A DNA stretch of 64,000 bases from an uncultured bacterium (GCA_964458305.1 CAYWIH010000005.1:1591-65590), one strand, 5' to 3'. Positions 4,201 through 44,230 are shown, counted from the first letter of the stretch. Numbers and translations are program-made. Notes: generated by a model from the letters alone, not told the origin.

Positions 4201-6720
4201 ACTAAAGGCGGCAATTTAACCCAAGATAAAGTTTATCGCGTTTGCGAAGATATCTATAATTCTGGCTTCTCCGATTGTTACATCAAAGTTTTAGAAACCT
4301 ATCAAACCAAAGCTTACGTAATTTCTGCGATTTACCAAAACGGCGAATTGTGGGGCTTATTTGCTGCCTATCAAAACGATCGACCTCGCCAATGGCAAGA
4401 AGAAGAAATCGATTTGATGACTGGGGTAGCAGAAAAACTCAGTATCTCACTCGAACAAGCCGAATATATCAAACAACTTCAAGCTAAAAATAAAGAAATC
4501 GCTCAAGTTGTCGAAACAGAAAAAGCTTTAGGACTCTTAGGGGAAAGAATTCGCCAAACTAAGGATCTAGATGCTGTTTTTAAATATACTCTTCCCGAAA
4601 TTAGGGATCTGCTCAAATGCGATCGCATTGTAGTTTATCGTTTTAATCCCGATTGGAGCGGCAAAATCATCGCCGAATCTGTAACTGAAGGTTGGATCTC
4701 TTTAATGGATTTACAAGAAAGCGATTCTAAAATTAGAAACGATTTAGTTCCCTCCGACGATTGTACCGTTAAAGAATACGGCAGTTTACAAGGGGATGGG
4801 TTTGGAGATACCTACCTTCAAGAAAACAAAGGCGGTATTTATTCTGCTGGCCGTCGCTATCGTAAAGTAAACGATGTCAGTGCTGAGAATTTCTCTGCTT
4901 GCTATTTAGATACTCTTCGCAAATTCCAAGCAAAAGCTTACATTAACGCACCAATTTACCAAGGAGGTAAACTTTGGGCACTTTTGGCAGTTTATCAAAA
5001 TTCCGGCCCTAGGGTTTGGCAAGATCGCGAAGTCGATTTATTAGTTAAAATTAGCGTCCAATACAGTATTGCAGTTCAGCAAGCTCAGTATTTCCAAGAA
5101 GTCCAAGATAAAAACGAAAAACTGACCCGATTGTTAACAACAGAAAAAGCCAACGCGCGCTTTTTATCTCGTCTTCCCAGTCGTTTAATCGATCTCGCAC
5201 AATCAACCGGAAAAATTGCAGAAATCTTAGATTATGCAGTTCGTGACCTGCGTCAGTTATTGAAAGTCGATCGAGTTGGAATTTATCGCTTCGATCCAGA
5301 TTGGTCGGGAGAATTTATCGTCGAGTCCGTAGGTAGTCAATGGCCTAAGTTAGTCGGAACTTCTCAAGCAAGAGTTCAAGATACTTATCTCCAAGAAAAT
5401 CAAGGCGGTCGTTACGCTCGTCGCGAAGGGCTTAAAGTCGATAATATCTATACCGTCGGACACGATGAATGTCACATTAACCTGCTCGCAGAATGGGGAA
5501 CTAAAGCTTATACGATCGCTCCGATTTTCGTTGGCGATCTGCTTTGGGGACTGCTCGGAGTTTATCAAAACGACCAACCCCGTCAATGGGAACAATCCGA
5601 GTTAGACGTAAGCATCCAAACCGGAATCCAAATTGGTACGGCGATCAAATTAGCTGAAACCCTAGAAAAAGTTAAGAAACAAGAACAACAATTAAGCGAA
5701 ATCGCCGATCGAGAAAAAACCGCCAGACAACAATTACAAAAAAATGCTCTCAAAGTTCTCAAAGCGGTACAACCTTCTTTCTCTGGAGATTTGACCGTTC
5801 GCGCGCCCCTTTCCGAAGACGAAATCGGTACGATCGCCGATGGTTACAACACTACCATTCAAAGATTGCGGCAATTAGTCGGACAAGTTAAGCAAGTTGC
5901 TTCTCGTATTGGCGAAACTTCCACCGATAGCGATCGCTTGGTAAGTCGACTGTCTAACAAAGCAGACCAACAGGTTCAAGAGCTTAGAAATGCTTTAGTT
6001 CAACTCAATTCCGTGGTTGCTTCTTCTCAAACAGTAGCTAACGACGCGCAAAAAGTAGAACAAGCTTTACAAGATGCCAACCGCATCGTCAACAGTGGCG
6101 ACTCTTTAATGGAGAAAACTGTCGATGGTATCGAAGAAATACGCGAAACAGTCTCCGAAACCTCCAAGAAAATCAAGCGTTTGGGCGAAGCTTCCCAGAA
6201 AATTACTAAAGTGGTCAATTTGATCGAAAACTTTGCCACTCAAACTAATTTACTAGCCTTAAATGCTGCTATTGAAGCTACCCGCGCTGGCGAATACGGT
6301 AAAGGTTTCGCTGTAGTTGCCGATGAAGTACGCGCCCTCGCCTATCAGTCTGCTAATGCAACCACCGAAATTAGCCGCATCGTCGCAGAAATTCAAGCTG
6401 AAACTAGCGAAGTGACCGAAACCATGGAACTGGGAATTACTCAAGTAGTTCAAGGTACTCAATTGGTTAACGACACTCGAGACAGTCTCAACGAAATCGT
6501 TCGAGCCACCAATCGCATCAGTCAATTGGTAGAAAAAATTACCCAAGCGGCTTCGGTACAAAGCCAACAATGTCAAGGCTTAACTACGGCAATGAATGAC
6601 GTATCTTCGATCGCTACTTCTACTTCAGATAGTGCTAGCTCGATCGCCGAGTCTTTCCAAAAACTACGGCACAATTCTCAAGAGTTACAAACTAGCGTCA
6701 GTAAATTCAAAGTCGAATAA
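1276..6720 (+). CDS. Soluble methyl-accepting chemotaxis protein with seven tandem GAF domains (PixJ/PtxD-like putative cyanobacteriochrome photoreceptor)
   Basis: 1814 aa. There are seven repeats of the GAF pattern DR(V/A)[17 protein letters not shown]...[14 protein letters not shown]. These are followed by a HAMP-like linker and the MCP signalling domain ([32 protein letters not shown]). No hydrophobic TM stretch was seen. Confidence 0.9.
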
Positions 6721-13270: not shown

Positions 13271-14920
13271 TCAGACTTTCAGTAATTTCCGTAATAATTC
13301 GCGATCTTCTGGCTTAGCCGATAAACGACCATTTTCTAAATCGCGAATCCAACTTTGACTTTTACCGACTTTTTGAGCTAAACTACGCTGAGAAAATCCT
13401 TGACGCTTTCTAGCTTCTAAAATCTGTTTGGCACTGAGATCTTTGCTTTTTCTAGATCCGAATCTTTGATGTTTTTTGCGCTGCTTCTTGTGGATTAATT
13501 TAGTCAGCTTTTCTTGCCATTCTGTGGGTAAATCGAAACCTAAAAGACGTGCTTTGACGAGCATATTCCATTTACCTGGAGGGCTAGAATCAATTAAAGA
13601 TCGATCGCTTTTGGCATCATTAATCCAAAATTCTACTGCTGCATCGCCATCTTCGGGAATATTGGCTAATTTAGCCCACAAAGGTTGAATTTCTATTTTG
13701 TAGGTAACGGGGTCAAAAATAGGTTTAATCCCGTAATAATTGAGGGTTTCTAAGTCGCTTTCAAAAGTTCGCAACAAACGCTTTCTAAAATCTCGCTGTA
13801 AAGCTGCTCGCTCTATTTTATCGTTACCATAAGCAACTTGCATTAATTTAGAGATTGTAATCGGCTGTTTTGTCCCCATTTTAGTTTTAAATAGCAGCCA
13901 GAGCATCATTCTGGCCGCTCCTTCATGTTGCTGCCAAATTGTGGCGATCGCATTTAAAAGGAATTTAGGCAAAGTGCCGTATTGATAGTAAGCAATTTTG
14001 TCTTTATAGCCTTGTTTGTTTAAAAAGTATTTTGCCCAAATACCTGCTTTGATTCTAAATGTTAGACCAATTAGATGCTTACAACCCAAAGAATCTTCTT
14101 GAAAATGATGTTTTATTTCGAGTAAATTCCAAATACGGCTGTTAGCGAAAGAAAAACCATTGACTTTACCTTGTTGGGGCCAGTCGATCGAGGCGATAAT
14201 TTTGCAAGGTTGTTGAGCGAGATCTTTGATGATGCTTAGTTTAGTTGCTTTACTGAGATCTTTGCGTTTATCTAAACCCAAATATTTTTCGATTTGTCGA
14301 TCGCTGATGACAAATTCTTGTTCCCAAGGTCGTTCTAATGTTGTAGCATAAGCAGCATAGATTAGGTGCAAACAAGCAGCTCTAATATCTATGCTGGCAA
14401 TGGCATATCGAGCTGCTTTTTCTTTTAATGCTTGAGGTACTTCGGATTTAAGTTCGTCAGTAATTTGAAAACTAATGCTTGCTTTTCCTTGTTTTAGAGA
14501 TCTTTGATAATATAAATTTTCTTCGGCATCGGTTTGCCAAGCTAAGGTTTTAGCACTACTTAATAAGTTACTTCCTTCCCAGATTACGATCGAAGAAGCG
14601 AGGGAATTATTTTTACCATTAATAAAAAGATCTTGACTGGTTAAGACATTTTTAGCTGCTTTATAGCGGCCTTTTTTGGGTGTTAAAGGTACGGGGCTGC
14701 CGATCGGACAGCTAACGATACATTGAGGATCTTCGTGGTGGCCTTGGCAATTATTACATAATTCTGTTTCTATTTGATAATGTTGTTCTCGATTGGATGT
14801 TATGGCATTTGTAGGACAGTGAGGTTGACAAATACCACAGCCAAAACAACTATTAGTAATTGTGTAACCTGTTGCAGTCTTTTGTGATTCCATCTCGAGG
14901 GTAGCTTGAGTTTTTGCCAT
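13271..14920 (-). CDS. cnfR: CnfR/PatB-type nif transcriptional activator (2x[4Fe-4S] ferredoxin-like N-terminus + XRE HTH C-terminus)
   Basis: 549 aa. It has CFGCGICQPHCP and CNNCQGHHEDPQCIVSCP motifs at the N-terminus. The C-terminus has an HTH (FSQRSLAQKVGKSQSWIRDLENG). This architecture matches PatB/CnfR of Anabaena and Leptolyngbya. Confidence 0.8.
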   Translation of the reverse strand: MAKTQATLEMESQKTATGYTITNSCFGCGICQPHCPTNAITSNREQHYQIETELCNNCQGHHEDPQCIVSCPIGSPVPLTPKKGRYKAAKNVLTSQDLFINGKNNSLASSIVIWEGSNLLSSAKTLAWQTDAEENLYYQRSLKQGKASISFQITDELKSEVPQALKEKAARYAIASIDIRAACLHLIYAAYATTLERPWEQEFVISDRQIEKYLGLDKRKDLSKATKLSIIKDLAQQPCKIIASIDWPQQGKVNGFSFANSRIWNLLEIKHHFQEDSLGCKHLIGLTFRIKAGIWAKYFLNKQGYKDKIAYYQYGTLPKFLLNAIATIWQQHEGAARMMLWLLFKTKMGTKQPITISKLMQVAYGNDKIERAALQRDFRKRLLRTFESDLETLNYYGIKPIFDPVTYKIEIQPLWAKLANIPEDGDAAVEFWINDAKSDRSLIDSSPPGKWNMLVKARLLGFDLPTEWQEKLTKLIHKKQRKKHQRFGSRKSKDLSAKQILEARKRQGFSQRSLAQKVGKSQSWIRDLENGRLSAKPEDRELLRKLLKV

Positions 14921-28976: not shown

Positions 28977-29009
28977 TGGAATTGAGCTTTTATAATAGTT
29001 TTTTTTTTA

Positions 29010-29243
29010 CTAGATTTTGAATTCTATTCGCTCGTCGAACCAATCAAAAATTCTTTGGAGTTGTTCTTTAGAAACCAAACCGTACTGCCACAGTAACATC
29101 GGGATCGGATCGTTTAAGTTTTGTCTTTTTTGAAGTACTATGGCAATTTCGGAATTTGAAATTGCTAGCTCCTCTTGCAAAAATTTAATTAATTCTGTAG
29201 GTCTACAATCTAATTCCATTATTTCACCATATATCTTTAGCAT
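29010..29243 (-). CDS. Small conserved cyanobacterial protein (DUF2949-like)
   Basis: 77 aa. LIKFLQEELAISNSEIAIVL...PIPMLLWQYGLVSKEQLQRIFDW resembles DUF2949. An alternative ATG lies at 29219. Confidence 0.5.
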   Translation of the reverse strand: MLKIYGEIMELDCRPTELIKFLQEELAISNSEIAIVLQKRQNLNDPIPMLLWQYGLVSKEQLQRIFDWFDERIEFKI

Positions 29244-29572
29244 TCAAAATTTAGACAAATCGAACTCCTTTTTTGTAATTTAAGTCACTTGAAAATAAAT
29301 TTCTGTTTATTTGATACAATTTACTTTTTTTTCCTATTTAATTATTTTTCTTAATTTTTTTTACCGATATATTGGGAAATTTTACGAAATTAGACTTTTT
29401 TTTTAAGATGTGTGTTCCCTCAGACAGATTTAATTTAATAAAACTTTATTCTATTAAATTTCTTAAATTAAACCGATTTTCGAGCGAACCTTTAAGATCG
29501 ATTCGCAAACAATCGGCTGCAGTTTAAGAACTCAAAAGCGATCGAGTCTAACTATATTCAATAAAAAAAGGA

Positions 29573-30271
29573 TTATAAATGGGGTAATTTTTTTTCTAAT
29601 ACTTCGATTCGCCGAATCAATTGCTCGATTAAATTATCTTTGAGATCTCGATTTAAAAGATTGAGAGAATTATCTTGAGATCTGACAATACGACCCGGAA
29701 TACCAACAACGGTACAATCGGGCGGCACGTCCGTCAATACTACCGAACTCGCACCGATCCGAACTCGATCGCCGATGTAAATATTTCCTAAGATCTTCGC
29801 TCCCGCACCAACAGTAACATTTTGACCTAAAGTAGGATGGCGTTTGCAGTCTCGATCGCCAGTTCCTCCTAAAGTCACATCTTGATAAATCGAGCAATAA
29901 TCGCCGACAATAGCCGTTTCTCCGATCGCCACTCCCATACCGTGGTCGATGAATACTCCTTTACCGATCTTAGCTCCGGGATGAATTTCAATTCCGGTAA
30001 TTAATCTGCCTAAATGAGAGATTAAACGGGGTAGGAGAGGAATTTTTAAGTACCAGAGCTGATGGGCTATTCTATGTAAAATTAAAGCTTGCAAGCCAGG
30101 ATAACAAAATAATACCTCTAGCCAGTTGCGAGCGGCGGGATCTCGCTCGAAAATAATTTGCCAATCTATTTTTAATAACTCCCACCAGTGAAGGTTTGAA
30201 GTGGAATCTTGATATATTGAAATGTTTAATTTTTTTTGAGAATCGTTTTTAGTTGCGATCGGCTCTAACAT
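29573..30271 (-). CDS. cysE: Serine O-acetyltransferase (nif-associated CysE = NifP)
   Basis: It has hexapeptide-repeat acyltransferase motifs ([28 protein letters not shown]..). The track ORF starts at a TTG (30274), and ATG is the next codon (30271). Confidence 0.85.
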
Positions 30272-30444
30272 CAAATTCTACGCTTGAAAGTTGATAAAGT
30301 TTATTTTTTAATGCTTATAGCAACTGAAGGGGTTGAAGTTAGTATAGTCAATCGCTATTAAACTAATTATTATTATTATTCGGTACTCAAAAAAAGCTAA
30401 TCCCAGCTATAGCAATGGTTAAAACCTCGTTTTAAAAAAAATTT

Positions 30445-30467
30445 GGGTAGGGGTACGAGTATTTTTT
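30445..30467. repeat. Inverted copy of the 22-bp element (GGGTAGGGGTACGAGTATTTTTT)
   Basis: It is the reverse complement of the unit at 30897-30940 with one mismatch. Confidence 0.85.
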
Positions 30468-30896
30468 GAATGGGGTTCGATTATTTTGGGAGCGAGGGAT
30501 TGATATTTTTGTACTCGATTTCAAGCCAAATATATCCAAAGGATCGCCCCAATCGATCCCCTGTCGGGCTTAACTAAAATTTGTACTCACAATAATCTCA
30601 AATCTTAAACGGTTCTATCCCTTATCAAATCTACCTTTAGACTATTTTAGTACTCGAGATAAAAGCTTAAGATACGTAGGAATAGCAAATACCACCCCGA
30701 AAAAATGTTAAATTAGCTACAGAATTTGAATTCCGTGATAGCACTGGGGAAGTTGGAGTTTTTCCCCCAGGCTTTTATCTAGCCCAACCAACCTGAATAC
30801 AAAACTAAATGCGATCGAAAAACAGAACGAAGATTGCTATAAGCCCGATCTAGTAACGATTAGAGCTTGAGTACTGTAATACCAGCCCCCCAAAAG

Positions 30897-30940
30897 AAAA
30901 ATACTAGTACCCCTACCCAAAAATACTAGTACCCCTACCC
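30897..30940. repeat. Perfect tandem duplication of the 22-bp unit AAAAATACTAGTACCCCTACCC
   Basis: Read directly. The units are 30897-30918 and 30919-30940, and the core TACTAGTA is palindromic. Confidence 0.9.
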
Positions 30941-31227
30941 CAAGAAAAAAATCAGACCCTCATCAGTTGGGAGTTAGGAGTATTGAGTACTAGATTAATT
31001 AACTCTAATAAATCTAAACTGAGTACAAAAAAAAACGAGTTAAATTCGGCAATGGTATAAAGAATACAACGTATCTAAGCCGCAGAACAAAAGTAAAGCG
31101 ATTTATTTCTTAATACTCGGAAAAATTTAGGTCAGGGAAGAATAGTTTTTGTTATGTTTCACTTCACGCTTTAACTTTAGATCGCTGGTAAATATCGTTC
31201 AATTATATTAATATTTCACGGAATTCA

Positions 31228-32691
31228 ATGTTACAAAATTCAGGCATTGTTACTACCTCAGATGTAAACACTGTAAGTAAGCCCGTTAGTGGTTGTGCAT
31301 CTTCTGGATGCGGTTCGCCAAGTACTGAAGTTCAAGATAAAAAGATACAAGAAAGAATAGCCAAACATCCTTGTTACAGTGAAGAAGCGCATCACCACTA
31401 CGCAAGGATGCACGTAGCAGTAGCACCAGCTTGTAACATTCAATGTAACTACTGCAACCGGAAATACGATTGTGCTAACGAAAGTCGTCCTGGAGTGGTC
31501 AGCGAATTATTAACTCCAGAAGAAGCAGCTCATAAAGTTTTGGTAGTTGCCGGACAAATTCCACAAATGTCAGTATTGGGAATTGCCGGCCCGGGAGATC
31601 CCCTAGCCAACCCGAAACAAACTTTTCGCACCTTTGAATTGATTGCAGATGAAGCACCAGATATCAAACTTTGCTTGTCAACTAACGGATTGATGTTACC
31701 CGAATACGTCGATCGAATTAAAGAATTAAATATCGATCACGTCACCATTACCATTAATATGGTAGACCCAGAAATCGGCACGCAAATTTATCCTTGGATT
31801 CGTTACAATCGCAAACGCTACACTGGATTAGAAGCAGCAAAAATCCTTCACGAAAAGCAAATGGAAGGATTGCAAGCACTCGCAGAAGCAGACATTTTAT
31901 GTAAAGTGAACTCGGTATTAATTCCGGGGATCAACGATCGCCACCTAGCAGAAGTCAATAAAGTCATCAGATCTAAAGGTGCGTTCATTCACAATATTAT
32001 GCCGTTAATTTCTGCTCCAGAACACGGCACCCACTTCGGTTTGACCGGACAAAGAGGGCCCAAACCAAGCGAACTAAAATTCGTTCAAGATTCATGTTCT
32101 GGCAATATGAAAATGATGCGCCACTGTCGTCAGTGTCGGGCCGATGCAGTAGGATTGTTAGGAGAAGACCGATCTAAAGAATTTACTAAAGATAAGTTCT
32201 TAGAAATGAGTCCAGAGTACGATGTAGATAAGCGTCAGGAAGTACATCAAACAATCGAACAATTCCAAACGCAACTCAAAAAAGAAAGAGTAGAAAAAGC
32301 CGCAGCTAAAAAAGTCAAAAAAGACAATCCAAAAATATTAGTAGCCGTAGCAACCAAAGGCGGCAGAATAGTCAACCAGCATTTCGGTCACGCTAAAGAA
32401 TTCCAAATCTACGAAGTAGACGGAGTCGAAGCCAAATTTATCGGACATCGCAAAGTAGACCAATACTGTCAAGGCGGTTACGGTGAAGAAGCCACCCTCG
32501 ATAACGTCATCGCTGCGATCGGAGACTGTAAAGCCGTTCTCGTTTCAAAAATCGGCGATTGTCCCAAAGAAAAATTACTTGCGGTTGGTATAGAAGCAGT
32601 CGAAGCATATCAGGCGATCGATACCGCAGCTATAGATTTCTACGAACAATACGTTTCGCAGAAAACCCCCCTCTCAGGAGTTAAATCATGA
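31228..32691 (+). CDS. nifB: NifB (radical-SAM FeMo-co biosynthesis protein with C-terminal NifX-like domain)
   Basis: 487 aa with the radical SAM motif [14 protein letters not shown]. The C-terminal NifX/NifB-type domain reads [26 protein letters not shown]. Confidence 0.95.
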
Positions 32692-32858
32692 GTTATGCCA
32701 CAGTAAAAGATAACGATTATTGGGAATCTTGGTTTGTTACCTATAACCAGTTTCTCGAAAGACTAAAAAACAAAAAACAATCTGATTATTGGGATCGTTG
32801 GTTTGAAGTTTATTCGGCAAAAATGAGTTTATTGGGATCTAATTCTGCACCACAATAA
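32688..32858 (+). CDS. orf56: Cys-free Trp/Tyr-rich microprotein, translationally coupled to nifB (below the ORF-track size cutoff)
   Basis: Its ATG overlaps the nifB TGA (ATGA at 32688-32691), and AGGAG lies 7 nt upstream. The translation is [56 protein letters not shown], with the internal repeat DYWxxWFxxY occurring twice. Confidence 0.45.
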
Positions 32859-32890
32859 TAAACTTCAAAAATCGGAGATTGAGAGGAGTT

Positions 32891-34075
32891 ATGAGGGACT
32901 GCACATATCTGGACAATAATGCCACAACCAAAATTGATGACGAAGTAGTAGCTCAAATGCTGCCATACCTAACCAAATATTACGGCAACCCTTCGAGCAA
33001 GCACCAATTTGGCGGACAAGTAGCTAAAGCAGTCAGAATAGCAAGAGAAAGAGTCGCTGCTTTGTTGGGTGCAAAAAATAGTTCTGAAATCGTCTTTACT
33101 AGTTGTGGTACGGAAGGAAATAATGCAGCAATTACCTCAGCTTTGTTAGCTAATCCGGCAAAAAAACAAATCGTAACCACCAGTGTCGAGCATCCAGCGG
33201 TACTGAAGGTTTGCCAGAGTTTAGAACGACGAGGCTATCAAGTAACTTATCTCTCAGTCAACGATCGAGGACAATTAAACCTCGATGAAGTAGAAAAAGC
33301 CATAACCGACGAGACAGCTTTAGTTTCCGTCATGTACGCCAATAACGAAACCGGGGTCATTTTCCCGATCTCAGCTATTGGCGAGATCGCTAAAAGTAAA
33401 GACGCTATCTTTCATGTCGATGCAGTTCAAGCAGTAGGGAAAATTCCCTTAAATATGCAAGATAGTTCGATCGATCTCCTCAGTTTGTCCGGGCATAAAA
33501 TTCACGCCCCCAAAGGCATTGGCGCGCTTTACGTTCGTCGAGGTTTTAAATTCTCCCCCCTAATAATTGGCGGCTCTCAAGAACGAGGTCGTCGCGGTGG
33601 CACCGAAAACGTACCGGGAATTGTTGCATTAGGTAAAGCAGCCGAACTCGCAGAGCAAAACTTGTGTAATATAAGACAAGAACGAACGCTGCGCGATCGA
33701 TTAGAAAGTAAAATTCTCTCTACTATCCCCAATACCGCAGTCAACGGAGATACAAATTCTAGATTACCGAACACTACCAATATAGGCTTCAAACAAGTCG
33801 AAGCAGAAGCAATCCTTTTATATTTAGAACGTCAAGGCATTTATGCTTCTTCCGGTTCTGCTTGTACTTCAGGAAATCTAGAACCTTCCCACGTACTTAA
33901 AGCAATGAAAGTATCAGATAGTATAATTCAAGGCTCGATTCGTTTTAGTTTGTCGAAATATAATACCGTCGCTGAAATCGATCGAGTATGTCTTGTATTA
34001 CCTAATATTATTGAAAATCTCAGAAATTTATCTTCATTAGATATCGAAGAAAGTGTAACGGGGACTATCAAATAA
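32891..34075 (+). CDS. nifS: NifS cysteine desulfurase
   Basis: It has the class V aminotransferase motifs YLDNNATT, SGHKIHAPKGIG and SSGSACTSG. The track ORF starts at TTG 32879, but ATG 32891 preceded by GAGAGGAG is more likely. Confidence 0.9.
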   Translation: MRDCTYLDNNATTKIDDEVVAQMLPYLTKYYGNPSSKHQFGGQVAKAVRIARERVAALLGAKNSSEIVFTSCGTEGNNAAITSALLANPAKKQIVTTSVEHPAVLKVCQSLERRGYQVTYLSVNDRGQLNLDEVEKAITDETALVSVMYANNETGVIFPISAIGEIAKSKDAIFHVDAVQAVGKIPLNMQDSSIDLLSLSGHKIHAPKGIGALYVRRGFKFSPLIIGGSQERGRRGGTENVPGIVALGKAAELAEQNLCNIRQERTLRDRLESKILSTIPNTAVNGDTNSRLPNTTNIGFKQVEAEAILLYLERQGIYASSGSACTSGNLEPSHVLKAMKVSDSIIQGSIRFSLSKYNTVAEIDRVCLVLPNIIENLRNLSSLDIEESVTGTIK

Positions 34076-34327
34076 ATGAAAGAGAATAATAAAGAAAAGT
34101 TAAGCCGATCGTTCGCAAAAATAGCTTCACAAACACTCGTCAATCCATCAATGAGATTGGAACTTGAGACAGTTAAAAATATTCCATCCTACTCGATATC
34201 AAAAATATCCTTGCAGCAATTATCCACAAAAAGAAAACAGACCAGACGGTGGCAAAATAGGCTATTGTCGCTCGATCGCGTAGTTGGGAACAACGAGAGA
34301 GAAGCGATCGGCAAACAATCCTTATAA
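34076..34327 (+). CDS. Doubtful 83-aa ORF abutting the nifS stop (not NifU)
   Basis: The ATG immediately follows the nifS TAA. The sequence is low-complexity and K/S/L-rich, with no Cys and no recognisable motif. Confidence 0.2.
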   Translation: MKENNKEKLSRSFAKIASQTLVNPSMRLELETVKNIPSYSISKISLQQLSTKRKQTRRWQNRLLSLDRVVGNNEREAIGKQSL

Positions 34328-34808
34328 ATAAGATTTATTGAAAAATCTCTTCTTTTTAGCCCAAATCTTAAAATTTGTCATCGAAGCAAAGTTAAATTAG
34401 GTATTTTGTCCTATCGTAATAGTAGAAATAAATTAGATAGATATTTACCACAGAAAAAATTAAAGCTTAAAAGCACAAAGAATTGCCGAAATATAACTTG
34501 AATTATTTAAATTCAAAACTCTGTAGTAACTAAAAAAAAGTAGCTCAAACTCGAGACAAACATGATATTTTTCAAGATCGAATCAAAAGGAGAACGCTCT
34601 CCTCCAGGCTTTCTCCTCGAGAAGATCTAAATCGAACCAGAGATATTTAAGGTAAGCCACGGAATTAATAATCCGATCCTCACCTGAATTAGTTGCCCGA
34701 CTTTCTTTCTTTGGCTCTCGATCGCTAGATCCCCTCAACTTGAATGGTGCAAAAAATTAACGCCATTCTTCCTCCAGATTTTAGACAACCAACTTCGGTC
34801 GGGATTGA

Positions 34809-35786
<978 letters not shown>

Positions 35787-35880
35787 AAAAACAGGGGAGA
35801 AAAGTCGAGTTAACTGTTAGTGCCAATAACTGATAACGACCTTCCCAACTCCCCATTTACAAGATCCGCTCGCAATCTTC

Positions 35881-35903
35881 AGTTGTCGTCCGACCCGACA
35901 ACT
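35881..35903 (+). other. Intercistronic stem-loop between nifH and nifD
   Basis: The 8-bp stem agttgtcg/cgacaact has a 7-nt loop. No T-run follows, so an RNA stability or processing element is more likely than a terminator. Confidence 0.5.
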
Positions 35904-35947
35904 AGGGATTTCTATACTCTAAAATCAACAAATTACAAGGGATCGCT

Positions 35948-37384
35948 ATGTCTACTGTAGAAGATAGGAAGCAACTAATCAAGGAGGTTCTGGATGCTTA
36001 TCCAGAGAAAGCGCGCAAAAGACGCGAAAAGCACCTCAACGTTTACGAAGAAGGTAAATCCGACTGCGGCGTAAAATCTAATAAAAAATCTCTTCCTGGT
36101 GTAATGACTGCTCGCGGTTGTGCTTACGCAGGTGCTAAAGGGGTTGTTTGGGGCCCGATCAAAGATATGATCCATATCTCCCACGGGCCAGTTGGTTGCG
36201 GTTATTACTCCTGGTCTGGTCGTCGTAACTACTATATCGGTACTACTGGAGTTGATACCTTCGGTACGATGCAATTCACCTCCGACTTCCAAGAAAGAGA
36301 TATCGTTTTCGGTGGTGACAAAAAATTAAAAATAATCATCGACGAATTAAACGACCTCTTCCCCCTCAACAACGGCTTTACGATCAACTCTGAATGTCCG
36401 ATCGGTCTGATTGGAGACGACATCGAAGCTGTTGCCAGACAAAAATCTAAAGATATCGATAAAACTGTAGTTCCTATTCGTTGCGAAGGTTTTAGAGGAG
36501 TTTCTCAATCTTTAGGACACCACATCGCTAACGACACGATCCGCGATTGGGTTTTCAAACCAGAAGATGAAAAAGAATCTACTTTTCAAGGTACTCCTTA
36601 CGATGTAGCAATCATCGGTGACTACAACATCGGTGGTGATGCTTGGTCTTCTCGTATTTTACTCGAAGAGATCGGCTTGAGAGTTGTCGCTCAGTGGTCT
36701 GGTGACGGTACTTTAGAAGAGATGAAGCTTACTCCCAACGTGAAGCTAAATCTAATTCACTGCTATCGTTCCATGAACTACATCAGCCGTTACATGGAAG
36801 AAAAATATGGTATTCCCTGGTTGGAATACAATTTCTTCGGCCCCACTAAAATTGCCGAATCTTTAAGAGCGATCGCCGCTAAATTCGACGAAACTATTCA
36901 ACAAAAAGCTGAAGAAGTTATCGCTAAATACGAGCCTACTGCTAACGAAATTCTTGCTAAATATCGCCCTCGTTTAGAAGGCAAAAAAGTAATGATGATG
37001 GTTGGTGGTTTGCGTCCTCGCCACGTCGTTCCAGCTTTCAAAGATTTAGGCATGGAAATCGTTGCTACTGGCTACGAATTCGCTCACGGTGACGACTATA
37101 AACGTACTACTGATTACGTTAAAGACAGCACAGTTATTTACGATGACGTAACAGGTTACGAATTCGAGAAATTTGCTGAAACTTTAGAACCCGATCTAGT
37201 TGCTGCTGGTATTAAAGAGAAATATGTATTCCAAAAAATGGGATTACCTTTCCGCCAAATGCACTCTTGGGATTATTCTGGCCCCTATCACGGCTATGAC
37301 GGTTTTGCTATCTTCGCTCGCGACATGGATTTAGCACTCAATAGCCCCACCTGGGATTTAATTAAAACTCCCTGGAAGAAGTAA
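35948..37384 (+). CDS. nifD: Nitrogenase MoFe protein alpha chain (uninterrupted)
   Basis: 478 aa. Typical NifD motifs are present ([28 protein letters not shown], and HCYRSMNY containing the FeMo-co Cys ligand). Confidence 0.97.
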
Positions 37385-42809: not shown

Positions 42810-43274
42810 ATGATCCAAGCTATCGAGTTAGCAGAAACAAAACAATCCGATCTTTTTGAGGGGGTCTTTTTACAAGAGTTCGTGCGACAAGTTCGCCATC
42901 GAGATACTCGCGGAATTTTCTCGAACTGCGACGATCTCATGTTAGTAAGCTCTTTACTTTTTACCTCAGAATCGGAACGGGAAAATAAAGATATCGACCT
43001 TTTAACTAATTTGCGAGTTTCGGCTTTTTTTTGGGCGGTCGCCACGATAATCGAACGAGAAACCGGACACATGACAGAAACTTTTATTAATCTTACTAGC
43101 AAAAAATTAAGTTCCGCGCTAGTTTTTTGCGGCGGCGTTCTCGTAGTTTATCAGATTATAAGAAAACTTGAACTTTTTGAGTTTGAATCGATCGATGGAC
43201 TAACATTTAGAGCAAGTATGTTAATAACAAATGCTCTGGCTAAGGCGGGTCAATATTTAGATTGTACTCCTTAA
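42810..43274 (+). CDS. Divergent DUF269-like (NifX-associated protein) paralog located upstream of nifX
   Basis: 154 aa, alignable along its length to the DUF269 protein at 43754-44230 (GVFLQEFVRQVRHRDTRG / SVFLQELVLQIRAQDTFG; AVATIIERETGH / AIAAVIEKETGR). The family motifs are changed: HEGFG to TSKKL and RFGF to LFEF. Confidence 0.6.
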   Translation: MIQAIELAETKQSDLFEGVFLQEFVRQVRHRDTRGIFSNCDDLMLVSSLLFTSESERENKDIDLLTNLRVSAFFWAVATIIERETGHMTETFINLTSKKLSSALVFCGGVLVVYQIIRKLELFEFESIDGLTFRASMLITNALAKAGQYLDCTP

Positions 43275-43753: not shown

Positions 43754-44230
43754 ATGAGTATCGAAACCAATTCACAAACCGAAACTAGCAGCATCGTTAG
43801 CGAAAGTGTTTTCTTGCAAGAATTAGTTCTGCAAATTCGCGCCCAAGATACTTTCGGAACTTACAGCAAATGGAAAGATGAATTAGTTTTAGCTCCTTTT
43901 GTTGTTACTAAAGAAAGAAAAAAGAAAATACCTCTAGATAAAGAAATAAATCCCGCTACTCATCTGAGAATTATGTCTTTTTATCGGGCGATCGCTGCGG
44001 TAATAGAAAAAGAAACGGGACGTTTTTGTCAGGTAATTGTTAACCTGAATCATGAAGGTTTCGGTTACGCTTTTATTTGGTGCGGTCGTTTGATTGTCGT
44101 CAATAAAAGCATGAGAGACGCGCAACGTTTTGGTTTTAATTCTTTAGAAAAGTTGGCGGAGAGAGGGGAAAAATTAATTAAATCTGGACTGGATGCGATC
44201 GAACGTTTTCCTGAAGCAGCTAAGGCCTAA
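43754..44230 (+). CDS. NifX-associated nitrogen fixation protein (DUF269)
   Basis: 158 aa with the canonical motifs NLNHEGFGYAFIWCGRLIVV and RDAQRFGFNSLEKL. Confidence 0.85.
   Translation: MSIETNSQTETSSIVSESVFLQELVLQIRAQDTFGTYSKWKDELVLAPFVVTKERKKKIPLDKEINPATHLRIMSFYRAIAAVIEKETGRFCQVIVNLNHEGFGYAFIWCGRLIVVNKSMRDAQRFGFNSLEKLAERGEKLIKSGLDAIERFPEAAKA

Follow-up and report, generated by a model that had tools for sequence, protein, structure and literature searches.

Our analysis of a 64,000-nucleotide stretch of DNA from an uncultured bacterium (GCA_964458305.1, CAYWIH010000005.1:1591-65590; hereafter the window) focuses on orf56, an open reading frame (ORF) of 56 codons lying between the nitrogen-fixation genes nifB and nifS. 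It is almost certainly a headless fdxN, i.e. the gene of the NifB-linked ferredoxin after in-frame loss of its ferredoxin domain (the head). What is left is a short piece of the original N-terminus joined to the Trp/Tyr-rich C-terminal tail of cyanobacterial FdxN. Because the ferredoxin core has been deleted with all of its 8-9 Cys, the predicted product cannot bind Fe-S clusters or carry electrons. The conservation of the tail makes it likely, judging from the comparison of related sequences, that orf56 still encodes a maintained, translated protein, and we lean, with some reserve, towards the combined claim that it is a headless fdxN with a maintained function. An earlier note on this DNA had described a Cys-free ORF of 56 amino acids (aa) with 12 aromatic residues at 32688-32858, in the position normally held by fdxN, and its sequence, coordinates and placement are exactly as given there. 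The features on which the argument is built are the following.

31228-32691, plus strand: nifB, 487 aa, with a radical-SAM domain and a NifX-like Nitro_FeMo-Co domain
32676-32680, plus strand: Shine-Dalgarno sequence AGGAG, with a 7-nt spacer to the orf56 ATG; interpreted as the ancestral fdxN ribosome-binding site
32688-32858, plus strand: orf56, 56 codons plus TAA; interpreted as a headless fdxN, an in-frame deletion derivative of the gene of a NifB-linked 2x[4Fe-4S] ferredoxin
32688-32705, plus strand: retained FdxN N-terminus MSYATV, from an alignment of 20 sequences; the canonical form is M-[AST]-Y-x-I-T
32715-32744, plus strand: first DYWxxWFxxY repeat, aa 10-19; aromatic face of predicted helix 1 (aa 3-28)
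32784-32813, plus strand: second DYWxxWFxxY repeat, aa 33-42; aromatic face of predicted helix 2 (aa 32-51)
32891-34075, plus strand: nifS, class-V aminotransferase / cysteine desulfurase (Pfam PF00266, 4.2e-96)

Relationship of orf56 to fdxN

Scans of orf56 against Pfam and NCBIfam returned only noise and no family match. Fer4 had no Pfam match in it even at E<=1, and the hidden Markov models (HMMs) of NifT, NifZ, NifW, NifX-associated/DUF269 and Mo-nitro_C, families that are encoded by other ORFs of the window, left it unmatched. A word-indexed protein search with orf56 found near-identical relatives only. We then built a profile from orf56 and its two closest relatives and used it in an exhaustive HMMER search of 1.84 billion representatives (E<=1e-3), which matched 38 clusters (50% identity) with E from 1e-21 to 1e-5. 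Most of these matches are FdxN-type ferredoxins of 105-186 aa that align only over their C-terminal ~45 residues, residues 8-51 of orf56 corresponding to this C-terminal tail. The full-length matches start with M-[AST]-Y-x-I-T-x-x-C-I-x-C-x-x-C-x-x-x-C-P-T, have a second Cys cluster, and are named ferredoxin or 4Fe-4S binding protein in their sources (Nodularia, Chrysosporum, Prochloraceae). We regard them as FdxN because their genes, where the DNA was examined (L006, L012), sit between nifB and nifS and encode Fer4 domains. A word-indexed search with the tail profile gave short proteins only, and is unfit for counting the members that bear a head. The internal duplication of DYWxxWFxxY that had been pointed out at aa 10-19 and 33-42 is indeed present, and the doubled motif is a hallmark of the 38 clusters. 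The ORF had been assigned to no named nif-associated family, and this has to be revised, since the profile matches identify it as fdxN without its ferredoxin domain.

Pairwise searches recover the same relationship. BLASTP aligns orf56 with the FdxN of L012 (186 aa) at 58% identity over 40 aa (E=2e-17). L012 is from another Prochloraceae metagenome-assembled genome (MAG) and is, by NifB, the nearest full-length relative (79% identity). With the FdxN tails of L006 and L012, tblastn finds 32715-32834 in the window (E of 5e-13 and 8e-13). In the alignment of 20 sequences, orf56 shows MSYATV, a gap over the entire Cys-rich core, and then the tail to its end, with Y11, W12, W15, F16, Y19, W35 and W38 invariant. 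The deletion junction lies after about codon 6, and ~55-60 residues with 8-9 Cys are gone between V6 and K7. The N-terminus is MSYATV in orf56 and MSYTTV in L016, as compared with MSYTIT or MAYQIT in full-length FdxN.

Like FdxN-type genes, orf56 is packed tightly between nifB and nifS and has their orientation; it lacks the two Cys clusters of FdxN-type ferredoxins (CxxCxxCxxxCP and CxxC...C...CP, with 8 ligand Cys). It has the two marks of the fdxN lineage, an N-terminus of the M-[AST]-Y-x-I-T type behind a GGAG box and the tail [DN]YWxxWFxxY(N), 12 or 14 residues, YWxxWFxxY(S). Its linker has 14 residues, a length found in 33 of the 62 unique full-length tails. The two repeats, joined by a short basic linker, are still identical at 22 of 30 bases, and the 12 aromatic residues are Y3, Y11, W12, W15, F16, Y19, F22, Y34, W35, W38, F39 and Y42, with not a single Cys or His. 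There is no space for a head upstream, because nifB (PF04055, 4.8e-24; PF02579, 1.4e-21) ends within the start codon of orf56. A remnant in an alternative frame was also considered and rejected, as the other two frames of 32660-32900 are closed by many stops. An Rfam scan of 29000-36000 gave no match.

Translation signals

The start codon of orf56 and the stop codon of nifB (TGA, 32689-32691) overlap in the ATGA at 32688-32691, the Shine-Dalgarno sequence stands 7 nt upstream, and the final codons of nifB run through it, so that the overlap and the good ribosome-binding site noticed earlier are both present. They had been taken to argue for real co-translation with NifB. The coupling is tight, but it does not speak for a new kind of coupling: a GGAG box lies 7-9 nt upstream of headless and full-length fdxN alike (L003-L008, L012, L014), and the close packing of nifB, fdxN and nifS is also seen at full-length fdxN (L006, L012), so that these features are inherited. 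From the sequence, we infer that orf56 is translated. The next gene of the operon, nifS, likely starts at the ATG at 32891, 32 nt past the orf56 stop, and this ATG is kept in L001-L004. The last ~8 codons of NifB in the window and its close relatives (ending in SGVKS, 32665-32691) correspond to the intergenic Shine-Dalgarno region in L012, where NifB ends in YVTK. In this clade, NifB thus seems to have grown at its end, running across the fdxN ribosome-binding site as far as the ATGA overlap.

Conservation and selection within the window clade

The identical protein is recorded on 9 contigs from independent assemblies, as a hypothetical protein of a Prochloraceae cyanobacterium MAG (NCBI MGF1485680.1). 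Relatives that are 68-91% identical to orf56 were found in L001-L003 (TARA metagenomes), L004/L019/L020 (MAG MO_167.B41), L016, L017 and L018, and together with the window they form what we call the window clade. The frame, the ATGA overlap and the Shine-Dalgarno sequence are conserved in L001-L004, L016 and L018, and the 56 shared codons are free of insertions and deletions (indels) within the clade. The earlier note would have taken it as a refutation if related nif clusters had no homologs or had broken the frame; homologs exist, and within the clade they keep both frame and overlap. Together with the 9 contigs and the doubled motif, this marks orf56 as no chance ORF.

Among the seven distinct clade sequences, 25 of the 56 positions vary, and none of these is among the 12 aromatic ones (hypergeometric P=2.5e-4). 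The more distant L005 differs from orf56 at 25 positions, only one of them aromatic (F22 to L; P=0.004). The ratio of nonsynonymous to synonymous substitution rates (dN/dS, method NG86) of orf56 ranges from 0.12 to 0.56 over clade pairs, and the nonsynonymous deficit is significant in the comparisons with L001 and L003 (P=0.002 and 0.0002). The pattern of variation over sites is more telling than dN/dS, and it is best read as purifying selection on the aromatic stripes of orf56. The repeat had been singled out for precisely this kind of check, and the aromatic positions bear it out, with the qualification that the nonsynonymous deficit in the pairs involving L004 is not significant.

Headless tails in other lineages

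Outside the window clade, headless tail ORFs directly follow nifB in at least four lineages, which differ in what is left of the head.

L005: 59 aa; starts MSY; nifS overlaps its stop
L007 and L024: 69 aa in L007; head remnant MAAPITTKLIPALL...
L008-L010: 76 aa; remnant MNVTTTQTDKTSDRYRF, corresponding to MAYQITQKCISCDRCRP with every Cys substituted
L014 (the cultured Leptolyngbya sp. 'hensonii', BST81_19780): 74 aa, with MMY as its first residues and a stop overlapped by nifS

The head remnants differ, and the headless lineages are interleaved with full-length ones in the NifB tree. Together these observations indicate several independent losses of the head. Headless genes are a minority: in a metagenome scan, 75 of the 79 classifiable loci had a full-length gene with a Cys-bearing head. 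The tails themselves change little. All 62 unique full-length sequences and all 12 headless tails agree in the Y, W, W and Y of the two repeats and in the F of repeat A, and the F of repeat B is retained in 53 of 62 full-length sequences and in 11 of 12 headless tails, the exception being an F-to-T change in L014. Since several lineages have kept the tail and lost the head, the role of the tail is probably independent of Fe-S clusters.

The pair L007 (606-815) and L024 (about 2440-2640) shows a mosaic: a tail core of ~130 nt is identical, including at synonymous sites, while the head remnant of L024 differs from that of L007 by indels of 17 nt and 1 nt and the two 3' ends have diverged strongly. 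The ATG immediately ahead of NYW is the only start that L024 could use. This pattern could result from selection or from recombination.

Several other candidates were discarded. The ORF of Hydrocoleum sp. CS-953 (L011) is better taken for a piece of a broken gene than for a clean headless allele, since it has a stop in the head and the tail frame is shifted: at L011 2465-2973 (LGSU01000389.1), nifB is immediately followed by MSCTIISKCVSCYH and a stop, and the tail, read in a different frame, has acquired its own ATG (WP_168186307.1). Downstream of this tail there are GAGTCAG tandem repeats and no nifS within 250 nt. P0028/L015 was headless only through a gene-caller artefact, its full head starting at L015:4744, and P0023 was set aside because its cluster mate is full-length (137 aa). 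P0029, P0009 and P0026 seem to be half-genes left by the interruption of fdxN in Nostocales. Finally, P0042 (784 aa, helicase/nuclease-like) is an unrelated sequence placed in the 90% identity cluster of orf56 by an artefact of database clustering.

Predicted structure of the tail

AlphaFold2 (AF2), run with the alignment of 20 sequences, predicts helices at residues 3-28 and 32-51 (mean predicted local distance difference test, pLDDT, of 74; predicted template-modelling score, pTM, of 0.36), and a run with three sequences gave the same two helices. The hydrophobic and aromatic side chains of each helix fall mostly in one arc of ~140 degrees, and the opposite faces are highly charged. The tail is thus predicted to consist of two amphipathic helices, each with a [DN]YWxxWFxxY aromatic stripe, and from the model we infer that they would pack as a hairpin. 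The tail profile matched none of the PDB sequences at E<=10, and Foldseek found no match to the AF2 model in the PDB.

Some FdxN proteins have expanded tails made of tandem DYWxSWFxTYNSL repeats, four in P0003/L012 (186 aa) and four to five in P0016 (172 aa), and these additional copies suggest that the tail is a modular helical repeat. Expanded tails occur at L012 8001-8561 and also in L013 and L022, and the full-length relative closest to the window clade has one.

The surrounding nif cluster

The window contains a complete cyanobacterial nif cluster of the Cyanothece type. On the minus strand are nifT, nifZ, nifV, a DUF2949 gene and cysE. The plus strand carries nifB, orf56, nifS, an ORF of 83 aa, nifH, nifD, nifK, a Mo-nitro_C gene, nifE and nifN, and then a NifX-associated-like ORF, nifX, the NifX-associated gene, nifW, hesA, hesB, fdxH, modA and modBC. 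The NifX-associated-like ORF (42810-43274, plus strand, just upstream of nifX) is a second, divergent copy of the NifX-associated gene (TIGR02935, 62.6 bits for a cutoff of 132), the canonical copy being at 43754-44230.

Compared with the canonical order nifB-fdxN-nifS-nifU-nifH, which is present in L006, L012 and L014, the window is without two items, a ferredoxin-sized fdxN and nifU. The only homolog of the FdxN head in the window (14684-14866) is the N-terminus of a regulator gene on the minus strand at 13271-14920, far from nifB. This gene encodes a protein of 549 aa whose N-terminal domain is FdxN-like and of the 2x[4Fe-4S] type (E=5e-14 by tblastn with the FdxN head), with an XRE-type helix-turn-helix at the C-terminus, an architecture that we take to be that of CnfR/PatB, the cyanobacterial nif master regulator. 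As for nifU, tblastn with two NifU proteins found no match anywhere in the window, and the gene is absent between nifS and nifH across the window clade. Its slot is occupied by a fast-evolving, Cys-free ORF of 81-83 aa (window 34076-34327, within 34076-34910; L004 7775-8020; L016 7581-7826; L003 about 4690-4900), whose ends are conserved (MK..K.KLS..F.KI ... RWQNKLL..DR....IGK.SL). The window and L004 copies are 42% identical, the neighbouring NifB being about 91% identical. The ORF has no Pfam or NCBIfam match, and the idea that it is a remnant of NifU was rejected for want of similarity (E=9.5).

Discussion

We propose the following account of how the headless gene might work. In full-length FdxN, the tail would be a docking module that attaches the ferredoxin to a Nif partner, and the tail alone would still bind, stabilise or organise this partner, the electrons for NifB being supplied by a different ferredoxin. 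Translation of orf56 through the ATGA coupling would ensure that the peptide is made alongside NifB. NifB is the likeliest of the candidate partners because the two genes are coupled and because FdxN has been implicated in the making of NifB-co in Azotobacter (Jimenez-Vicente 2014, as cited in PMC6616624; PMC6911178), an identification that we offer as a doubtful guess. That the two-helix tail of FdxN is an autonomous Nif accessory module, needing no Fe-S clusters and serving for example to dock or stabilise NifB, is a plausible idea that we hold to be somewhat short of probable.

Several observations weigh against a maintained function of the tail. The constraint on orf56 is clearly weaker than that on its neighbours, since the same genome pairs give dN/dS of 0.07-0.12 for nifB, 0.13-0.19 for nifS and 0.06-0.11 for nifH, and the comparisons with L004 give 0.5-0.56, which is not significant (P=0.11-0.14). 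The clade sequences are close (NifB 91-96% identical), so the head may have been lost recently. The head loss of L005 may be shared with the window clade or be independent of it, and L014 has a degraded second motif (WTTDY). The confidence of the AF2 model is only moderate, with its pTM of 0.36. Hydrocoleum has an intact tail inside a broken fdxN, which means that an intact tail is not by itself proof of function.

Some of these points also serve the main rival explanation, according to which the deletion of the head left a useless fdxN whose frame has not yet decayed, or is kept open for the traffic of ribosomes from nifB to nifS, in which case translation or spacing would matter and not the peptide. 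The gene is dispensable elsewhere: fdxN is not essential in Anabaena variabilis (PMC2246100, PMC6616624) and is pseudogenised or lost in the diazoplasts (spheroid bodies) of diatoms (PMC2246100; bioRxiv 10.64898/2026.04.23.720389). Orf56 also evolves faster than its neighbours, with dN/dS about 0.5 on the L004 comparisons, and the tight packing of nifB, fdxN and nifS is ancestral. Yet a relic does not account well for a peptide in which 0 of 12 aromatic positions vary, compared with 25 of 44 others, nor for the significant deficit of nonsynonymous changes relative to L001 and L003. The frame, the start codon and the Shine-Dalgarno sequence have been retained in at least five lineages, in which the loss or scrambling of the head took different forms, whereas the truly neutral fdxN of the Rhopalodia gibba spheroid body has stops and frameshifts in all three frames (PMC2246100). 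A mere spacer has no need of conserved Trp, Tyr and Phe. We therefore consider the relic unlikely, while taking it seriously; were it correct, orf56 would be a case of ordinary gene decay in a remodelled nif operon.

Other explanations accept that the tail is functional and differ on how. It might act together with a head-only, FdxN-like ferredoxin encoded elsewhere, the function being split over two polypeptides. Domain fission is common, and the sequence covered (64 kb of the source genome, 16 kb of L004) leaves room for a stand-alone head elsewhere; but the only match of the FdxN head in the window is the N-terminus of the CnfR/PatB-like regulator, and the remnants in L007, L008 and L014 show that the Cys ligands were lost in place and not relocated, which makes a split improbable. 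We give about as little credit to the tail being an interfacial membrane anchor, or a Tyr/Trp 'hole-hopping' sink that shields oxygen-sensitive clusters, with the headless form acting in trans. The 12 aromatic residues, those of the repeats lying on one face of each helix, are what such a role would call for, Trp/Tyr-rich amphipathic helices do partition into membrane interfaces, and every source-named carrier of the tail is an oxygen-evolving cyanobacterium. However, this reasoning is purely compositional, the charged opposite faces fit a soluble helical pair, and redox protection without an attached cluster is hard to picture. That orf56 founds a new family of small nif-associated proteins, unrelated to known nif genes and replacing fdxN, can hardly be entertained: Pfam and NCBIfam have no match for it and databases call it a hypothetical protein, but its homology to the C-terminal part of FdxN is significant and it has kept the N-terminus and the ribosome-binding site of fdxN.

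No other product of the cyanobacterial nifB operon is as poorly understood as FdxN; reviews give no determined structure for it and call its role unclear (PMC6616624), and our search of the literature, Pfam, NCBIfam and the PDB found no description of its C-terminal tail domain. Headless alleles provide a natural domain dissection, which indicates that the electron-carrying head can be dispensed with in some lineages and the tail is kept, and this repeated retention suggests an unrecognised function of an uncharacterised domain. They give a testable hypothesis on how NifB is serviced in oxygenic phototrophs, and they matter for attempts to reconstruct a minimal cyanobacterial nif cluster with Synechocystis or plants as hosts. 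In engineered Synechocystis, the addition of fdxN raised nitrogenase activity by 50% (PMC11980358). There is also a consequence for annotation, because headless ORFs are now labelled 'hypothetical protein' and their clusters would be scored as lacking fdxN.

Comparison with known systems

Orf56 is closest to cyanobacterial FdxN (Anabaena/Nostoc, Nodularia, Cyanothece; 115 aa in L006 and 186 aa in L012), with which it has in common the locus, the strand, the position in the operon, the GGAG box, the M-S-Y start, and the C-terminal DYWxxWFxxYN...YWxxWFxxYS domain with all aromatic positions conserved. It differs in size and in what the size implies: those proteins have 105-186 aa and both CxxCxxCxxxCP motifs, whereas orf56 has 56 aa and the core is gone. 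With the proteobacterial FdxN of Azotobacter vinelandii and Sinorhizobium meliloti, it shares the gene name and the linkage to nifB. Both are short ferredoxins without the DYW-repeat tail, and the part of FdxN that orf56 shares is the one that they lack. In agreement with this, every source-named match of the tail profile is cyanobacterial.

Short tail-only ORFs are also found in databases for the 3' fragments of fdxN in heterocystous cyanobacteria, in which the excisable fdxN element interrupts the gene (PMC4874684; 10.64898/2026.01.15.699626), and of which P0029, P0009 and P0026 are examples. Such fragments belong to a gene whose halves are put together again as the heterocyst develops, and their first residues are part of the head (...CPTxxGCVKQPNDYW), whereas orf56 abuts nifB, has an authentic N-terminus and has no head nearby.

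The diazoplasts of Rhopalodia gibba and Epithemia provide a parallel at the level of the whole cluster, since in them, as in the window, FdxN function has been lost from an otherwise intact and selected nif cluster (PMC2246100; bioRxiv 10.64898/2026.04.23.720389). The R. gibba spheroid body has an fdxN pseudogene and a truncated nifU (PMC2246100), and in the Epithemia adnata diazoplast the order is nifB-nifS-nifH, with both fdxN and nifU gone, for which the SUF system has been proposed to compensate (bioRxiv 10.64898/2026.04.23.720389). The parallel extends to nifU, truncated or lost in the diazoplasts and likewise absent from its usual place, between nifS and nifH, in the window clade. It ends at fdxN itself, which in diazoplasts is riddled with stops and frameshifts or gone altogether, whereas orf56 combines a clean in-frame deletion with an intact tail and intact translation signals.

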